Source of the DNA: a virus
Taxonomy: Duplodnaviria > Heunggongvirae > Uroviricota > Caudoviricetes
IMG/VR virus record: IMGVR_UViG_3300029305_011445
DNA: 53,015 bases
Reading direction: 5' to 3' (one strand)
In this document: positions 11,962 through 47,467 of the stretch, piece by piece
Position numbering within the stretch: the stretch's first letter is position 1
Layout: the number at the start of each line of letters is the position of its first letter
Position numbers and translations under genes: made by a program
Notes under the pieces: generated by a model
What the model was told of the DNA's origin: nothing
What the model saw: the letters and a program-made list of their open reading frames with translations, nothing else
Databases searched by the model: none

Positions 11962-12032
11962 AGCTTATGAAGGGAATCGAACCCTCAAATCTTGCTTGGG
12001 AAGCAAGTGTTTTACCACTAAACTACATAAGC
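11962..12032 (-). tRNA. tRNA-Gly(CCC)
   Basis: Loop TTCCCAA, U73. Confidence 0.93.
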
Positions 12033-12092
12033 AAATTTATTTTATCGATATTGGAACAATGCATTACCCAAGTTCGATATTGTTTTGGGAAA

Positions 12093-12163
12093 TTGCAAAG
12101 GCAGGAGTTGAACCTGCATCCATGGGTCTATGAAGCCCGTGGGATGACCGCATCAGCTTTGCA
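12093..12163 (-). tRNA. Atypical CAT tRNA, initiator-like, with miniature D loop
   Basis: TGCAAAG/CTTTGCA acceptor; GGG/CCC anticodon pairs; GATG-CGGT-CATC D arm. Confidence 0.6.
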
Positions 12164-12234
12164 ACCTGTAACTTTATACACGGAGAAAACCTCATACCAC
12201 TGTCGCATTTCAGTGCCCTATTCTGAAATGCAAG

Positions 12235-12307
12235 CGACTCAGACGGGGATCGAACCCGCTACCTTCTGATAGACAGTCAGACGTGCATCCTATTACACCT
12301 CAGAGCC
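12235..12307 (-). tRNA. tRNA-Asp(GTC)
   Basis: Loop CTGTCTA, G73. Confidence 0.9.
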
Positions 12308-12315
12308 ATATTTAA

Positions 12316-12384
12316 CAGAAACGATGGGATTCGAACCCATGATCTTCCCGTAAAGGACACTCTGCCCGACTGAGCTACGTTTCT
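12316..12384 (-). tRNA. tRNA-like gene with collapsed anticodon arm (no assignable anticodon)
   Basis: Perfect acceptor, D and T arms; anticodon arm reduced to TCC-TTTACG-GGA. Confidence 0.65.
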
Positions 12385-12439
12385 GCGAATGCATACTTTA
12401 AGGTATACATTCTATTGCTACAACAAAACCGTTAGTAGA

Positions 12440-12523
12440 ATCATTGTAACGAAATATTGTTTGTTACCCGGATTTCAAAAGTTTCATAGAAACTTTAAAG
12501 AACCATTGATTCTTTTTACCGGG
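12440..12523 (-). ncRNA. Copy 3 of the three-way-junction motif
   Basis: Same two A/T hairpins, closed by CCCGG/CCGGG. Confidence 0.45.
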
Positions 12524-12544
12524 ATGTAAAGTCGATCCATTTTG

Positions 12545-13080
12545 TCGATCAAAGCGTTTTGTTACTGGTTTATGCTTTTAAACGAATCGCTACCAGACAA
12601 AGCATTCGTCCCTGTTTGTTTGTTGTTGCCAACAAGCACTTGGCTCTGTGCTTCTGTTTGTGTCAGTGCCCTGTATAAAAGTTTATGAAACTTTACGTTT
12701 AAATGAACCATCGCTGACACTGGTTCAACCCGTACAGTCTTTAAAGTGCGTCGGTTATATACACTATTAAATCCATTTTAATGAGCTGAGACATTGACTC
12801 ATGTACTTATCATCTATCATTGTTGGCAATGACATGTCACACAGCCGATTAAGCTGTAGATAAGAGCGACACCAGTTTCGGTTACTGGCTAACCACTGCG
12901 TTAGGTTTCATAGATTTCCGTTTGACACATTCTTCCTTGCGGGATTCAGAGATTGCAGTCTCTTAGAGTTGCATCTACTTGTACTTTTCTCACACTTTGT
13001 CTTGCGAACTCCATGTGCGTTCATATTTCAGAACGATAAGTCGCTTTTAGCCTTAACGCCGTACACACTTTTGCTTTATT
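12545..13080 (-). ncRNA. Large ornate ncRNA, about 540 nt (ROOL-like; family unverified)
   Basis: ORF-free; long-range helix 13055-13071 with 12743-12756; pseudoknot 12714-12720 with 12660-12666; many hairpins; tRNA-array context. Confidence 0.6.
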
Positions 13081-13149
13081 ATGTTTTGTATAATATGATT
13101 TCCTATTATTAAATCAGATAACACAATCCATTTGCAATAGATGTATACA

Positions 13150-13735
13150 ATAATATTCAATTGGATGATGAGGTGCACGTTTTGAATCTCCGTACCTTTT
13201 GAATACGGCCCAATTCGTCACCACCCTGCTCGTCTTGCGATCGACTTGCTTCGTAGCCAATATCCCACGTTGTCCGTGTCCGAATATCAATCAACGATTA
13301 ACATAGCACTTACGCTTGCGGCATTCGTACCATGAAACATTCAACCATCCCCGTATTTCTACGTTATTACAGTGCCTACTCTAGTTTCAAGACACCCACT
13401 CAAACCACATTTTACTAGACAGTAGTCCCTCTGAATGGAAGGTTTGGTGTAGGTTGTAATGGTTTTCCGTCAAACTCCCGATGCGTACGCTCGAAAAGTC
13501 GCAGTATATTAATTACCACTTTATCCCTGTCACCAGGTTTATTTTTAAGCTTTTGTACTTTTACGTAACCGTATTCACGTTTTGCGCGAATACAATCTCG
13601 CTTAAATACAATTACTTTCAGACCCGAAACCAGCCCGTTTGCATTTCTGCAAAAACCGTTCTACAAGACATGATCCTGCTCATAAGACTCAACTGGTATC
13701 TTATGCGTTCCCAACTGAACAGAACGGTGTTCAAA
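13150..13735 (-). ncRNA. Second large structured RNA, about 590 nt (family unknown)
   Basis: GC-enriched, ORF-free on the sense strand; nested helices; GCAA/GAAA/GTGA-capped hairpins. Confidence 0.55.
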
Positions 13736-13782
13736 AACTTTTACAAAAGGAGAAAGTTACAAAATGTTAAATCCTGTAACAG

Positions 13783-13856
13783 TTGCGGGGATTGGACTCG
13801 AACCAACGACCTCCGGGATATGAGCCCGGCGAGCTTCCAACTGCTACCACCCCGCA
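13783..13856 (-). tRNA. tRNA-fMet(CAT)
   Basis: Three G-C pairs in the anticodon stem, loop CTCATAT, U1-A72. Confidence 0.92.
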
Positions 13857-13944
13857 AGATGGCTGAAGATTTAAACTTCAGCCGATATTAAGTTTAAGGA
13901 AGTATAATAATGTACTATACATGTAAAGGTGAGAACATGTATAA

Positions 13945-14017
13945 TCACTCCGGTGGGAATTGAACCCAACATTACCGCCGTGAAAGGACGGTGTCCGTGC
14001 CACTAGACTACGGAGCG
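13945..14017 (-). tRNA. tRNA-Glu(TTC)
   Basis: Loop CTTTCAC. Confidence 0.92.
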
Positions 14018-14038
14018 AGAAATTTATTATATTTATTA

Positions 14039-14065
14039 TTAGGACCAAATTATTTCGAAACGAAG
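14039..14065 (-). promoter_or_regulatory. Class A promoter motif heading the tRNA array (one of 13 copies)
   Basis: CTTCGTTT-N-TGGTCCTAATA, fixed spacing. Confidence 0.65.
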
Positions 14066-14263
14066 TAATTTGATATATTTTTTTCTTACCTGCCTAATTG
14101 TTTCATTTGAAACAATTGAGACAGGATTTTGCGTGACTAAAAAAGATTAATTAGAAGACAATAATAAATATGGTTTATACTTTTTACAAAGTAAAACACT
14201 TTTTCGTTTCATATATAGTATTAGGGCCAGAATTATAAAAACGAAGTAATTTTTTAAAAGATT

Positions 14264-14512
14264 TTACAAAATTTCTTCAAATTCAAAGCCGTCTAATAAG
14301 CTACCAAGCTGTTTAAATGATAATTTACTTGTTTCATTTGTTCTCTCGTTTTTGCATGTGATATATACTGCTTTTACAGTATCTGACCATCCAGTTTTCT
14401 GAACCGGAGCTTCAAATGTTATAACATCACCGACACAAATTCCTTTAAATGCAGGACTTGATGATTTCTTGTTAATTTTTGTACATTTTGCTTTATTCTT
14501 TAATGTAATCAT
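14264..14512 (-). CDS. Hypothetical protein
   Basis: 82-aa ORF, AAAGGGG RBS. Confidence 0.75.
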   Translation of the reverse strand: MITLKNKAKCTKINKKSSSPAFKGICVGDVITFEAPVQKTGWSDTVKAVYITCKNERTNETSKLSFKQLGSLLDGFEFEEIL

Positions 14513-17442: not shown

Positions 17443-18651
17443 TTACTGATTGTTCATACGCCAATCGATGCAACGTTGCAAATATTCAACGTATTCAGGA
17501 TTTTTACACATACCTTTACCTGGTGTGTCTGAGATTTTTGCAACATCCTGTCCGTTACAAACTGTAACCTTCATAACGATATTAAGAGGTTTTACATATG
17601 TATCGTTTGAAATGTGTGTACCAATACCAAAGGCAACACGTGCGCGGTTATGAAAGTGATGGAAAATTTCGTCTGCTTTTTTAAAATCAAGACTGTCACT
17701 AAACAACAGAGTCTTTGTCATTGGATCAATACCAAGTGACTCATAATGTTCAATCATCTTTTCACCCCATTCAATTGGATCTCCACTATCGTGACGAACG
17801 CCTGAGAATAAGGTTGCATAGGTAAGCTGGAAATCTTTAAGGAAACAATCAGTTGTGATTGTGTCAGTAAGCGCCGTACCATTCAACACCCCGTACTCTT
17901 TCACCCATGCATCCAGAGCGTACCAGTTAGAGTATGCTGGATTGTGTTTATGGTTACCCTGGCCGGTACACATGATCCATTCATGTGCCATGGTACCAAC
18001 TGGTGTTAAGCCATACTTCTTTGCAAGATACACATTAGATGTACCAACAAATGTGGAACAACCATATTTTGTTTCAGCTAAGCGTTTTACGGCATATTCC
18101 TGTGCTTCAGCTGATAAACGGCGACGAAGGCCAAATTCGCTAAAGCTTGATAAACAATAAGATCCGCCAATAGCAATCTTCTTTAACTTTTCTTCGAAAC
18201 GTTCTTTGAAGCTCTCAAAAAGTTCATCATAATCATACATCATCCAGAAATATGTTTCATTTACGATAGCAAGAACTGGAATTTCATACATTGATGTATT
18301 AAGCCATGTCCCTTTTGCTTCAATAGATAATCCGCACTCAGCATCGGTTGTGATAGTGAAATCTTCGAAACGAGGCTGCCAGAGACGTAAGAAATCTACA
18401 TAAGAGCCTTTGATCCATCTAATCGAATCAAGATACTGTAACTCATCTTCTGTGAAACGAAGATTACAGTACGCTTTAATCTGTTCTTTGATTTCTTCCA
18501 CAATTGCCGGTGTAAAATACACATCTTTGTTACGGCATTTGAAAGTCCAAGTTGTTTTATAATCAGAAAACTGATGGAAAATTGCTTGGCCCATTGAAAG
18601 TTTGTACATATCCGTTTCTAACAGACTTGTAATGATTTGATTTAATTTCAT
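17443..18651 (-). CDS. pncB: Nicotinate phosphoribosyltransferase
   Basis: LLETDMYK, SEFGLRRR, GTSNV, GTMAHEW, RHDSGDP, FSDSL, FGIGT. Confidence 0.97.
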   Translation of the reverse strand: MKLNQIITSLLETDMYKLSMGQAIFHQFSDYKTTWTFKCRNKDVYFTPAIVEEIKEQIKAYCNLRFTEDELQYLDSIRWIKGSYVDFLRLWQPRFEDFTITTDAECGLSIEAKGTWLNTSMYEIPVLAIVNETYFWMMYDYDELFESFKERFEEKLKKIAIGGSYCLSSFSEFGLRRRLSAEAQEYAVKRLAETKYGCSTFVGTSNVYLAKKYGLTPVGTMAHEWIMCTGQGNHKHNPAYSNWYALDAWVKEYGVLNGTALTDTITTDCFLKDFQLTYATLFSGVRHDSGDPIEWGEKMIEHYESLGIDPMTKTLLFSDSLDFKKADEIFHHFHNRARVAFGIGTHISNDTYVKPLNIVMKVTVCNGQDVAKISDTPGKGMCKNPEYVEYLQRCIDWRMNNQ

Positions 18652-18828
18652 AATCATTTCTCCTTTTTCTTGTATAAGATATTTGAAACTTTATGTTTCA
18701 GTTACAAAAATAAATATGGTATGCAGAAATTGCATACTATCGCATTTAATAAATCAAACGATCTTTCGTTACGCATTGACGCCTTTAACAAGTTAAAGGA
18801 TATGATATATAAAGAGATACGAAGCAGA

Positions 18829-38118: not shown

Positions 38119-39465
38119 TTACGCACTAAATTCGACCAAATATTCAATGGTTGCCTGACACTGTTGATATACAATTACCTCATCATTACGCAATCGCATA
38201 CCATTGTCACCATTGTTACGTTCTGCCCATAAGCAGTCGCAATCCGGATGATCTCTGTGAAAATCCTCCCAATGATGTGGTGATTTACACATACCACCGT
38301 CTCTGTAAATATAATATGGATTTCCTGTTGCAACTTTGAAAATTGCAAGATAGGCTTTGTTATCAGACCCTTGTGCCCAATAAGAACCTCGTGACGAAGT
38401 ATATCCTATTGATTTACCAGCACTAGGTGCAAAATAAATGCCATATCCAAACATTTTACCACAAATACGAACATCTGCTTTTACGAGCTCCGGATTCAAA
38501 TATAAACCGTTTAAGAAAATACTCCACCAATTTGGTGTGCCGGAACCATGCCAAAGTTTTGTAATACCACCATTTTCTTCAGTAAGATTCCGTGATTTAC
38601 AATATTTGTTAAAAGCATCTTCTGTTTGATGATTTTTACATTTCCATGCTCGCAAATATCTTGCGCGATTATTTGTCATCAAATCTTTGATAAAGTTCTC
38701 TTCATCTTTTGTGACATCTCGCATTTCAAGATTGTTTGCTTCCAGAATTGTTTTGTTAGCATCAACAGCACCTGTGGTTCGAAGCATTGAACACAAGAAA
38801 TCTAACAATTCCTGTTCCGCTTGAATTTTGTTCGTGAAATCGCTTTGTTTTTTAACGATTTCATTTTTCATCTGGCGAATTGGACGAGGAATAATTGTCC
38901 ACAAATCCATCAGTAATTTGTTAAATTCAGATACAGATAAAGAATCTTTTTCTGTATTTAACTTATTGATAAGTTCTTGTGCAGCGGTTAAATCCTTTTC
39001 CGGGATTGTATCGATTTTAACAGAATACTGTTCGCTAAGGACTTCATTTGCGGCAGCTAATAACTCTTTTAAAATGTCACGAACTGAAACGTTCTCGATT
39101 TCACGATATTCACCTGACTTCTTAATTTCTTTGGCATCAAGTTTTTCTGTAGAAACGACATTCCATTTCGAACAAATCTTGCGGCTTACATACTCGCACC
39201 ATTCTGTTATTGGTAACCTTCTACAAGTCTGTTTGTTTGGGCCAAACTTAACCTGCGTTTTGCCACTTTTTACGGTGAAGAAAAGCCCGTCCGCAGAAAC
39301 TTCCAATTCTTCCTGCTCGTTTTTACCGATATTTGTGCCAAAATTCATTGCCACTTTACGAAGTAAAAGGTACTTCGTTTTTGTCGGATCAAAAATTGGA
39401 TCCATTGCCATATCATCTACGATATCTGCAGTGTCCATGTTGTTCATTGATAATTCACTTGCCAT
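38119..39465 (-). CDS. PARP-type ADP-ribosyltransferase (regulatory plus catalytic domains)
   Basis: LWHGS, GKMFGYGIYFA..A.KS..Y, LRNDEVIVY (H-Y-E triad); LWTIIP regulatory-domain motif. Confidence 0.92.
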   Translation of the reverse strand: MASELSMNNMDTADIVDDMAMDPIFDPTKTKYLLLRKVAMNFGTNIGKNEQEELEVSADGLFFTVKSGKTQVKFGPNKQTCRRLPITEWCEYVSRKICSKWNVVSTEKLDAKEIKKSGEYREIENVSVRDILKELLAAANEVLSEQYSVKIDTIPEKDLTAAQELINKLNTEKDSLSVSEFNKLLMDLWTIIPRPIRQMKNEIVKKQSDFTNKIQAEQELLDFLCSMLRTTGAVDANKTILEANNLEMRDVTKDEENFIKDLMTNNRARYLRAWKCKNHQTEDAFNKYCKSRNLTEENGGITKLWHGSGTPNWWSIFLNGLYLNPELVKADVRICGKMFGYGIYFAPSAGKSIGYTSSRGSYWAQGSDNKAYLAIFKVATGNPYYIYRDGGMCKSPHHWEDFHRDHPDCDCLWAERNNGDNGMRLRNDEVIVYQQCQATIEYLVEFSA

Positions 39466-44481: not shown

Positions 44482-44834
44482 CGGTAGTTATTATCTGTTA
44501 GTTTTTTATCTAACACTCTGGAACTTTCGTTCATTTTCATCGATTGGTCAATTCCAATCCAGCCTAGCATAGCTTTTTACCAATATATGATAATCATATA
44601 TACTGAATGGTAAAGCAGTCTCGTGGAAGCATTATATTCTGCAACTAATTACAGGTTCAGCTTCTATGCGTTGCCCCTGACTATCTTTTTACAATAGCCT
44701 TCGGTTCGGATTAGGATAGCCACACCCTTCCCGTTTAATACTGCTTTAATTATTCTAAACAGATACTTCAGCAATCTGCTTAAAACGGCATTATAGAATA
44801 TTTGGCTAAAATATATCATATTCTATACTTATTT
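44482..44834 (-). ncRNA. Group I intron without ORF (353 nt), nrdD intron 2
   Basis: Exon ends GGT (U), intron ends G; removal gives in-frame RRTCGYIG|SQYW; GATTGCTGAA, GGGGCAACGCATAG and AAGCTATGCTAG core-like segments. Confidence 0.85.
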
Positions 44835-46493
44835 ACCAATATATCCGCACGTACGACGCGCAACACTCATCGTTTCCTGATGTCTATTGCCACAATTCGG
44901 GCACTCCCATACCAGTTTCTTATGTTCGTCTTCTACGATTTTGATTTCTCCATCGTAACCACATTCCATGCAGTAATCAGACTTTGTATTAAGTTCAGCA
45001 TACATAATATTATTATAAATATACTGAATTACCGAAATTACAGCAGGAATATTGTCCTGCATATTCGGAACTTCTACGTAACTGATTGCACCACCTGGTG
45101 ATAATGCCTGAAATTCTGATTCAAATTTCAGTTTTGTAAAAGCATCAATTTCTTCAAAAACTGGAACATGATAACTGTTTGTGATAAAGTTTCGATCTGT
45201 TACACCTTCAATCTTTCCAAAACGTTTCTGTAAACATTTTGCAAATTTGTATGTTGTTGATTCCAATGGTGTTCCGTATAAACTGTAGTCAATATTTTCT
45301 GCAGCTTTCCATTCTGCACACGCATCATTTAAACGCTGCATAACTTTCAATGCAAAAGGTTTACCGGTTTCATCTGTATGTGATACGCCTTTCATGTATT
45401 TCACACATTCGTATAAACCTGCAAATCCAAGTGAAATTGTTGAATATCCATCATACAGCAATTTATCAATGGTTTCGCCCTTCTCTAAGCGTGCTAATGC
45501 ACCATGCTGCCAAAGAATTGGCGCTACATCAGATTTTGTACCAAGTAATCTTTCGTGACGACGTCTTAATGCTCTATGGCATAATTCCAGACGTTCTTCT
45601 AAAATACGCCAGAATTCTGTCTCATCTTTATATGATGAACATGCTACGTCAACAAGATTAATTGTAACAACACCCTGATTAAATCTTCCGTAGTATTTGC
45701 TAGAGCCTTCAACATAATTCAATGCTTTCGCAAGATTTTCTGTTGTTCTGTCTACGGTTAAGAAAGAACGGCATCCCATACACGGATAACACTGACCGGC
45801 ACCAGTTTTATCAACTTTAAGCTGATTCATCATCTTTTCAGAAATATAATCTGGTACCATTCTCTTTGCGGTACAACGAGCTGCTAATTCTGTTAACCAG
45901 AAATATTCACTACCAGATTCAATATTGTCTTCTTCTAAAACGTACAACAACTTCGGGAATGCTGGTGTTACATATACACCCTTTTCATTCTTTGTTCCGA
46001 GGATTCTCTGGTGTAATACTTCTTCGATGATCATTGCTAAGTCGTCTCGCAACTGTCCTTCCGGTACCTCATTCAGATACATAAATACTGAAACAAATGG
46101 AGCTTGCCCGTTTGTTGTCATAAGGGTATTTACCTGATAATGGATTAACTGAACACCACTCTTAACTTCTTTCACAACACGCTTCTCGGCAATTTTGTTT
46201 ATCTTTTCATCTGTTGCATCAATGCCAGCTTCTGCAAGCTCTTCACGAACCTGTTTACGATATTTCTGTCGACTGATATCAACAAATGGTGCAAGATGAG
46301 ACAATGTAATTGTCTGACCGCCATATTGTGAACTAGCAATCTGCGCCACAGCCTGTGTCGCGATATTACATGCTGTCAAAAAACTCTTTGGCGGATCAAT
46401 CATGGTTCCGGAAATTACTGTTCCGTTCTGGAGCATGTCTTCAAGGTTAACTAAGCAGCAATTGTGCATATGCTGCGCGAAGTAATCTGCATC
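44835..46493 (-). CDS. nrdD: Anaerobic ribonucleotide reductase, exon 2
   Basis: DADYF..HNCCL, YGGQT, MGCRSFL, GRFNQGVVTINL, TPLEST, Zn site CMECG/CPNCG, RRTCGYIG. Confidence 0.97.
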
Positions 46494-47467
46494 CAACGCA
46501 TTTTTGTACAAAATGCGCCTGACTATATCATAATCTGTGATTCTGTTACCAAAACACAGATTCCAGGCACTTCCAAATAGAGAATTTCACTCTAAATGTA
46601 CTCTACTTACTTTACCATGTAACGTCTTTCTCGTTAACGGTCGCTTTCGATAGTCGATTGACCTTTTTCTTTTATATCTTTTACATGTATCCCATATTGT
46701 TCAAAATAATTATTTTTTTCACCCATTACTGCTTTTCTAATTAAAGCATCAGTATAAGACTGTGACAAATTTAACAATAATGATAAATCTGATCTGGAAT
46801 AATTGTTTCCGTTTTTATCATAGATATCATATCTGAATCGTCCATTATTTTTCCATTTTGATAAATTCAGCATTTTATTAATTTCTGAAAAATGTTTTGC
46901 AGTTCTTTTTCGAAAATCTGGATTTTGCCATCGTTTGGAATTTGATTCAGAAATATTGTTAAGATTATTGATACGAGCATGGTAGTTATTGTAATAATGT
47001 GTACACCATTCAAGATTTGAATAGTGATTATTAAGTTTATTACCATCTTTATGATTTACGACTAATTCTTTGTAATTTGATGGAACATCTAAAAACAAAA
47101 AGGCAACTAGCCGATTCGCTCTAAATGCTTGCAACTTGTTATTAATTGATAGTCGATAAACCAAATATCCGTATTTTGTTACTTCGCCTTTTAAGAATTT
47201 ATTACTTTTTGTAGAAAATACTCTTCCATCTTCGTATGCTAAATATGAGAAGAATTCTTTGTAATGCAATGTATCAACCCCTTTCATGAAGGGATATATA
47301 TACGATATAAAAGAAACTTGGCACAGGATTGATAAATCTTTCCCTGTTAGCACATTACCAAACTGCCATTTCCTGCAGTTCCGTATTTACGTGTAATGTA
47401 CACCGTAGATTTCTACGTTCACCTGGTTTTTCACTGTATATCACTACACAGTGCCACAATGTTATTT
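46494..47467 (-). mobile_element. Group I intron (974 nt) with HNH homing endonuclease, nrdD intron 1
   Basis: Removal gives GLIHFH|DADYF; 5' exon U and terminal G; R-like GTCAATCGACTA and S-like ATGATATAGTC. Confidence 0.92.
46634..47269 (-). CDS. HNH homing endonuclease
   Basis: RANRLVAFLF, VVNHKDGNKLNNHYSNLEWCT; probable TTG start after AGGGG. Confidence 0.92.
   Translation of the reverse strand: MHYKEFFSYLAYEDGRVFSTKSNKFLKGEVTKYGYLVYRLSINNKLQAFRANRLVAFLFLDVPSNYKELVVNHKDGNKLNNHYSNLEWCTHYYNNYHARINNLNNISESNSKRWQNPDFRKRTAKHFSEINKMLNLSKWKNNGRFRYDIYDKNGNNYSRSDLSLLLNLSQSYTDALIRKAVMGEKNNYFEQYGIHVKDIKEKGQSTIESDR

Follow-up and report, generated by a model that had tools for sequence, protein, structure and literature searches.

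The 53,015-nt phage stretch IMGVR_UViG_3300029305_011445, which we call the window and to which all coordinates refer, very probably carries a single GOLLD-class RNA gene of about 870 nt (13653-12783, minus strand) within the tRNA array of a large phage. The region under study, 13150-13735, lies on the same strand and most probably consists of the GOLLD 5' domain and a tRNA-like remnant. A large structured RNA had been noticed here from the sequence alone; that observation is real, and the kind of element is ordinary. A second, unknown giant RNA is absent here: the region is a divergent gut-phage member of the GOLLD family.

Family assignment and phage setting

The initial annotation had asked for an Rfam search and had named a match to a known element as evidence against its own reading; the search returned such an element, the GOLLD model RF02032. 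In a sensitive scan of 12000-14300, RF02032 matches 12783-13226 (-) over its entire length (model positions 1-416 of 416) with 81.9 bits and an E-value of 4.5e-21, and the match begins inside the region under study. The score lies below the gathering score of 150, which is an operational cut-off and describes no structural feature. When the whole window was scanned at the Rfam gathering thresholds, only tRNAs were reported, and neither GOLLD nor ROOL. Kretsch et al. take a cmsearch E-value below 1e-5 as the criterion for GOLLD, and the window falls within that cut-off. The signatures of the GOLLD 3' part, namely the UCAAAAG hairpin, AAAGCAAAAGU, the long-range pseudoknot, the GCAA hairpins and the UCUCAGC end, are all aligned with high posterior probability. 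The family was at first said to be unassignable; it can be assigned as GOLLD, in the form of a divergent clade that scores under the Rfam gathering score.

The neighbouring block had been called ROOL-like, and it is GOLLD by RF02032. ROOL RNA resembles the RNA described here in being a large, ornate, phage-associated RNA that is found near tRNA genes and forms nanocages (PMC12286853), but its Rfam model (RF03087) gives no match up to E 10 in 12000-14300.

In GOLLD RNAs, conservation is lower in the 5' domain (P1-P13, residues 1-420 in env-38) than in the conserved 3' domain (P14-P27); their linker is variable and at times embeds a tRNA, and their genes lie in phage tRNA islands (PMC12286853, PMC12990946). 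The RF02032 model spans only the 3' half. The RNA in the window shares with known GOLLDs the layout of two domains with an AU-rich linker and a total length above 800 nt, the setting in a phage tRNA array, the occurrence of a tRNA within the linker of some members, a full-length match to the 3' core, and a first half of the 5' domain that is homologous in both search directions. It differs in its scores, with 82 bits for the window and 62-108 bits for its clade against 227-332 bits for lake-type GOLLDs, and in the 5' domain, whose second half is clade-specific and some 65 nt shorter. Further differences of the window itself are an extra 70-nt hairpin after P1, a P0 hairpin with a GAAA loop, and about 400 nt of sequence beyond the 3' end.

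Rfam and ARAGORN together identify 40 tRNA genes in the whole window, all on the minus strand between 1980 and 14018. Phage-type genes of replication and nucleotide metabolism are present as well: a RecD2-like helicase, an anaerobic ribonucleotide reductase (NrdD; 44829-46511 (-)), a nicotinate phosphoribosyltransferase (NAPRTase; 17443-18657 (-)) and a protein with a PARP-type ADP-ribosyltransferase domain (38119-39465 (-)). The upstream flank of the RNA unit is formed by a tRNA-Met(CAU) at 13782-13856 (-), called by ARAGORN and matched by the Rfam tRNA model with 34.5 bits. Another match to the tRNA model, at 12316-12384 (-), reaches 50.8 bits; in the Rfam alignment its anticodon arm is shrunk to a few nucleotides, and ARAGORN makes no call there.

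The general properties first reported for the region were confirmed. The GC content of 13150-13740 is 0.39-0.47, compared with 0.24-0.33 in the flanks past the adjoining tRNA genes, and the minus strand, which had been described as free of open reading frames, contains none of 60 or more amino acids. Every motif that had been quoted is literally found in the sequence. The minus strand of 13150-13740 folds with -177.8 kcal/mol (z -4.21), a value that beats 100 of 100 dinucleotide shuffles.

A probable single unit from the 5' domain to the 3' core

We collected relatives with three pattern scans, one for the generic GOLLD core in viral contigs (L001-L080) and two for the junction hairpin, in viral contigs and in metagenome contigs. 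The scans yielded 238 loci in total, of which about 150 are matched by the region's sequence in nhmmer, always from query position ~170-200 to the end; clustering at 97% identity left 52 representatives. Most of the relatives lie on contigs of 75-400 kb from human gut and rumen samples. Among GenBank phages, blastn in distant mode found no match to 12500-13780.

In more than 100 and up to about 150 of the gut and rumen loci, the same 5' domain is fused to an RF02032-like core. The layout is constant: a tRNA, often Asn(GUU) or Met, is followed by a spacer of a few nucleotides, P0, P1, a domain of about 400 nt, the UCAAAAG hairpin, the linker and the 3' core. Beyond the core another tRNA follows at once, its place being taken by a terminator-like hairpin in L057 and L018. 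The clade's RF02032 scores are 62-108 bits (E 1e-13 to 1e-27), and because these lie below 150, annotation at the Rfam gathering score misses the clade; it would pass the E < 1e-5 criterion of Kretsch et al.

Other RNA genes were seen near GOLLD in the fetched loci. A phage tmRNA gene lies within about 1-2 kb of GOLLD in several freshwater and some gut or rumen loci (L059, L021, L072, L028, L041, L098 and L179). A 'drum' RNA (RF02958, 80.8 bits) is located at L138:1998-2105 (-), about 430 nt downstream of the GOLLD-like RNA, and there is a group I intron in L041 and a freshwater-1 RNA in L021.

For the part of the unit that RF02032 leaves uncovered, we built two covariance models, R1 and R2, both trained without the window's sequence. 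RNAalifold gave only 10 pairs for R1, so R1 works mainly as a sequence profile. R1 matches 13344-13640 with 114.1 bits (E 6.5e-28) and R2 matches 13227-13343 with 76.7 bits (E 2.4e-16), each over the full model. Together with RF02032 they leave no gap in the locus, and the resulting unit, 13653-12783, is about 870 nt long. In the eight relatives tested, the RF02032 match starts at most 3 bases from the end of the R2 match.

The 3' edge that had been placed at 13150 cuts through this unit: in the Rfam alignment, the junction hairpin with its UCAAAAG loop (13165-13226 (-)) corresponds to RF02032 positions 1-63. The loop does not vary among the 49 aligned sequences, and the stems covary. The hairpin is followed by an AU-rich stretch at 13078-13164 (-), which aligns to the unstructured internal linker of RF02032, and by the 3' domain core at 12783-13077 (-), identified by RF02032 and holding AAAGCAAAAGU, the pseudoknot, the GCAA hairpins and the UCUCAGC terminus. 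The AT-rich linker of the initial annotation exists, from 13164 to about 13078, and is the internal linker of GOLLD. A long-range helix that had been proposed for this neighbouring block, 13071-13055 with 12756-12743, competes with the Rfam-aligned GOLLD pseudoknot (~13060 with ~12900).

The 5' models also connect the clade to canonical GOLLDs. R1 gives full-length matches, with E-values of about 1e-6 to 1e-3, in some 30 loci that had been fetched by the generic core pattern only. Eight of these are canonical by Rfam (L059, L072, L068, L028, L041, L021, L007 and L073, with RF02032 scores of 227-332 bits), and in all eight the R1 match lies 182-186 nt upstream of the RF02032 match on the same strand. 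In the opposite direction we used a reciprocal model, R3, built from the upstream regions of lake-type loci only (16 loci, 8 of them confirmed canonical). R3 matches the gut clade with E-values of 1e-14 to 1e-7, and its matches are full-length in gut and rumen relatives such as L097 (52 bits, E 1.3e-14) and L081, L057, L082 and L134 (35-40 bits). In the window it matches 13470-13545 with 21.2 bits (E 6.4e-5) over model positions 23-96 only; the match is partial because the 70-nt insertion parts P1 from the rest. By eye, both groups share the signature block AAAUAAAC-[stem-GNRA-stem]-GGAUAAAGUG, whose stems covary. R2 found nothing significant in the canonical GOLLD loci, its best match there (L072; 16 bits, E 0.4) standing at the right place, and this result fits the less conserved GOLLD 5' region of the literature. 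Given the tiling by R1, R2 and RF02032 and the matches at canonical GOLLDs, 13640-13165 is very probably the variable 5' ("cap") domain of GOLLD. The points that weigh against this reading are the score below 150, the missing R2 counterpart in canonical loci, the short R3 match in the window and the extra sequence of about 400 nt after the 3' end.

Several relatives (L057/L157, L097, L207, L212 and L216) have a genuine tRNA in the linker, and RNase P and RNase Z could excise such a tRNA and thereby split the RNA. The 5' and 3' domains would then be two RNAs, cut from one transcript and either assembling non-covalently or remaining apart. We consider this improbable. The window's own linker contains no tRNA according to Rfam and ARAGORN, embedded tRNAs have been proposed to be shielded within the cage and to stay uncut (PMC12990946), and full-length GOLLDs of known structure enter the assembly as single chains (PMC12286853).

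Lower still is the probability that the region is a separate second RNA gene, having its own promoter, terminator and function beside a GOLLD- or ROOL-like RNA. The unstructured AU-rich stretch between the halves would agree with two genes, as would the finding that the two domains of GOLLD fold as separate 3D domains (PMC12286853). Against this, the last hairpin of the region already belongs to RF02032, and the 5' block is always joined at fixed spacing to a GOLLD core, canonical cores included. A sequence scan found promoter- and terminator-like sites no more often than in shuffles and none in the linker between the halves, and the terminators of relatives appear only after the 3' core. Of the two options that had been offered, a separate giant RNA is not supported; the other, one domain of a larger RNA, is borne out, as R1, R2 and RF02032 tile one unit and the contiguous layout is found also in more than 100 loci.

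Helices of the 5' domain and the cloverleaf beside it

The 5' domain of this GOLLD-class RNA begins with P0 and P1, continues with the 70-nt expansion, and then forms a conserved multi-helix fold of about 390 nt that ends in the UCAAAAG hairpin. P0, just 5' of P1 at 13638-13653 (-), is the hairpin UUUGCA-GAAA-UGCAAA (fold z -3.3). At its position L189 has CCGCA-GAAA-UGCGG, and the gut clade has another covarying hairpin, with stems CCUAC/GUAGG, CCCAU/GUGGG or CCUAU/AUAGG. P1 (CGGGCU-GGUUUCG-GGUCUG, 13619-13637 (-)) is the first conserved helix of the domain. It is present in 49 of 49 sequences, shows compensatory changes at 5 of its 6 pairs in the alignment of these sequences, and has an equivalent hairpin in canonical GOLLDs.

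The expansion hairpin of about 70 nt at 13547-13617 (-) is specific to the window, as the alignments show, and folds with -28.1 kcal/mol (z -6.71). Its site in relatives is empty or holds a 16-nt hairpin, and an exact-pattern scan of IMG/VR found no match to it. The first half of the 5' domain proper (13344-13546 (-)) is supported by R1, by covariation, by minimum free energy (MFE) folds that converge in 49 sequences and by the partial R3 match. It contains AAAUAAAC-[CCUG-GUGA-CAGG]-GGAUAAAGUG, with the hairpin at 13537-13526, and in addition a long helix H1 that encloses a nested hairpin, a local hairpin H2 and a GAAA hairpin. The clade-specific second half (13227-13343 (-)) is supported by R2 and by covariation in alignment A5, and has two multi-helix arms with GCAA-type loops.

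Covariation was measured in two alignments. For A2, with 49 sequences, RNAalifold gave 60 pairs, 47 of which have changes on both sides; 95.3% of the cells are paired, and the covariation is 0.596, compared with 0.222 in shuffled alignments (0 of 300 reach the observed value) and at most 0.126 with slid partners. For A5, the model-based alignment of the second half, 89% of the cells are paired, both sides have changed in 26 of 28 pairs, and the covariation is 0.706, compared with 0.261 in shuffles, none of 500 reaching it, and no more than 0.151 with slid partners.

In the middle region the MFE folds of the 49 single sequences converge on one order, a helix of about 9 bp around a nested hairpin followed by a local hairpin and a GAAA hairpin, and the MFE fold of the window agrees. 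Its helices were tested singly by column counts against shuffles. H1 (13449-13441/13406-13397) is paired in 93% of cases and compensated at 8 of 9 pairs, and both H2 (13396-13390/13377-13371) and the GAAA hairpin (13363-13352) beat all shuffles.

Of the pairings that had been proposed from the single sequence, three show compensatory changes in relatives: CCUG-GUGA-CAGG (13537-13526), CGUA-GAAA-UACG (13363-13352), and CAAACC/GGUUUG, which is part of H1. The outermost one, CCUAC/GUAGG, did not hold up, for its covariation is no better than that of shuffles (75 of 300 reach it) and its closing pair lies in a 6-nt insertion specific to the window. ACACC/GGUGU has mixed support, being paired in 85% of cases and above the shuffles, but it is an alternative register that excludes H2 and the outer part of H1. 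It also covaries because its 3' strand contains a GGUR-GGUR repeat. This repeat, in the 13406-13371 region, covaries with both the upstream ACRCC and the downstream AGGYAC strands, and in alignment A_w the two mutually exclusive registers are both kept across relatives. The long-helix register is favoured, as its Watson-Crick pattern is cleaner (UA 26, CG 14). The double register could represent a conformational switch or pairing between subunits, or it could simply follow from the repeat.

Protein-coding or antisense-coding DNA is an explanation to which we give practically no weight: a 136-aa ORF does exist on the plus strand (13481-13891), but it crosses the opposite-strand tRNA-Met, the longest open stretch differs in strand and frame between relatives, and the helix substitutions are compensatory. 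Protein-like conservation was not seen, with no conserved frame, no 3-base periodicity in the variable columns (66/61/61) and no Pfam match of the ORF.

The 5' edge of the region is occupied by a different element. The pairing ACCGUUCU/AGAACGGU, which had been taken to close a 5' domain, is the acceptor-like stem of a tRNA-like cloverleaf and lies outside the large fold. This cloverleaf is 75 nt long (13654-13728 (-)) and resembles a degenerate tRNA-Asn(GUU); ARAGORN reports it at the 80% threshold only, with no call at default settings, and Rfam gives no tRNA match up to E 10. Its acceptor-like stem has 8 bp, the D arm reads GUUC-AGUUGG-GAAC, the anticodon position is taken by GUU, and the T loop (AUCAUGU) is degenerate; the cloverleaf is also the MFE structure of 13728-13654 (-25.1 kcal/mol, z -2.96). 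Its identity is 45-49% to the upstream tRNA-Asn(GUU) of relatives and 34-36% to tRNA-Met, and it stands 3 nt before P0, where relatives have their flanking tRNA. Unlike a true tRNA, it lacks the UUCGA consensus in the T loop, has A at position 33, and joins the acceptor stem to the D stem without a spacer. With decayed phage tRNA genes in arrays it shares the 75-nt cloverleaf with acceptor-like stem, D arm and GUU, and the slot of tRNA-Asn or tRNA-Met. An exact-pattern scan of IMG/VR found no match to the element. We conclude with moderate confidence that 13728-13654 is a decayed or diverged tRNA gene and no domain of the large RNA.

At the other end of the unit, about 400 nt (12385-12782 (-)) lie between the GOLLD 3' end and the next tRNA-like gene; in relatives, a tRNA or a terminator comes directly after the 3' end. 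Part of this stretch had been joined to the GOLLD core when the neighbouring block was delimited as 12545-13080. This 3' extension, 12782-12385, has no nhmmer match in any fetched locus, and relaxed ARAGORN finds no credible tRNA in it.

Upstream of the 5' domain, rumen relatives (L057:5330-5390 (-), L097, L157, L207, L212 and L216) have the near-consensus sequence TTGAAA-17-TATAAT about 30 nt before P1. To go by this motif, the RNA of the rumen lineage seems to have its own sigma-70-type promoter; at the same place the gut lineage has the flanking tRNA and the P0 hairpin.

Predicted cage assembly and the value of the clade

Solved GOLLD cages include the env-38 14-mer (PDB 9MEE) and the Streptococcus agalactiae 12-mer (9L0R), and in them the cap is made by the 5' domain, which also decides between a 12-mer and a 14-mer (PMC12286853, PMC12990946). 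The S. agalactiae RNA forms a 12-mer at full length and is heterogeneous when reduced to its 3' domain; env-38, which has additional helices in its 5' and 3' domains, forms a 14-mer (PMC12286853, PMC12990946). By analogy with these structures, the RNA of the window would self-assemble into a closed, RNA-only, homo-oligomeric nanocage. The 3' domains would build the rings of the cage, and the 5' domains, that is, the region under study, would close each half-shell as a cap and determine how many subunits the cage has, with the linker facing the lumen. By the same analogy, the conserved A-minor bridge and loop L11a may have their counterparts in the invariant, A-rich UCAAAAG loop and in the conserved GAAA loop.

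The geometry of the locus suggests how the RNA is released. Its ends are probably set by tRNA-processing enzymes that act on a polycistronic array transcript and cut it at the tRNAs or tRNA-like elements on either side. Because tRNAs abut both ends of the RNA in relatives, RNase P and RNase Z are the enzymes that probably free it from the array transcript.

Three features of the clade would amount to a remodelled cap: the clade-specific second half, the lineage-specific expansion hairpins and the register ambiguity of the GGUR-GGUR repeat. We suggest, as a tentative idea that is rather doubtful at present, that the clade forms a distinct GOLLD subclass in which the remodelled cap leads to another subunit number or to a switchable cap, and in which the flanking tRNA, reduced in the window to a decayed cloverleaf, is kept as a processing handle for freeing the RNA from the array transcript.

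For this locus, the analysis clears away a false lead, as neither a second unknown giant RNA nor a ROOL RNA is present. For the family, more than 100 loci of large gut and rumen phages, with their whole 5' domains, turn out to be left unannotated by Rfam's GOLLD model, which is restricted to the 3' half and has a high gathering score. Of use beyond this locus are the clade itself, missed at the gathering score, the first alignment and models of its 5' domain, and a definition of its natural insertion sites. In the solved structures, capping and stoichiometry of the cage depend on the 5' domain, and a well-aligned, divergent and covarying set of such domains is therefore useful material for asking how an RNA encodes cage size. 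It also offers natural insertions at defined sites, as well as tRNAs in the linker, and the clade bears on the function of GOLLD in phage tRNA islands.
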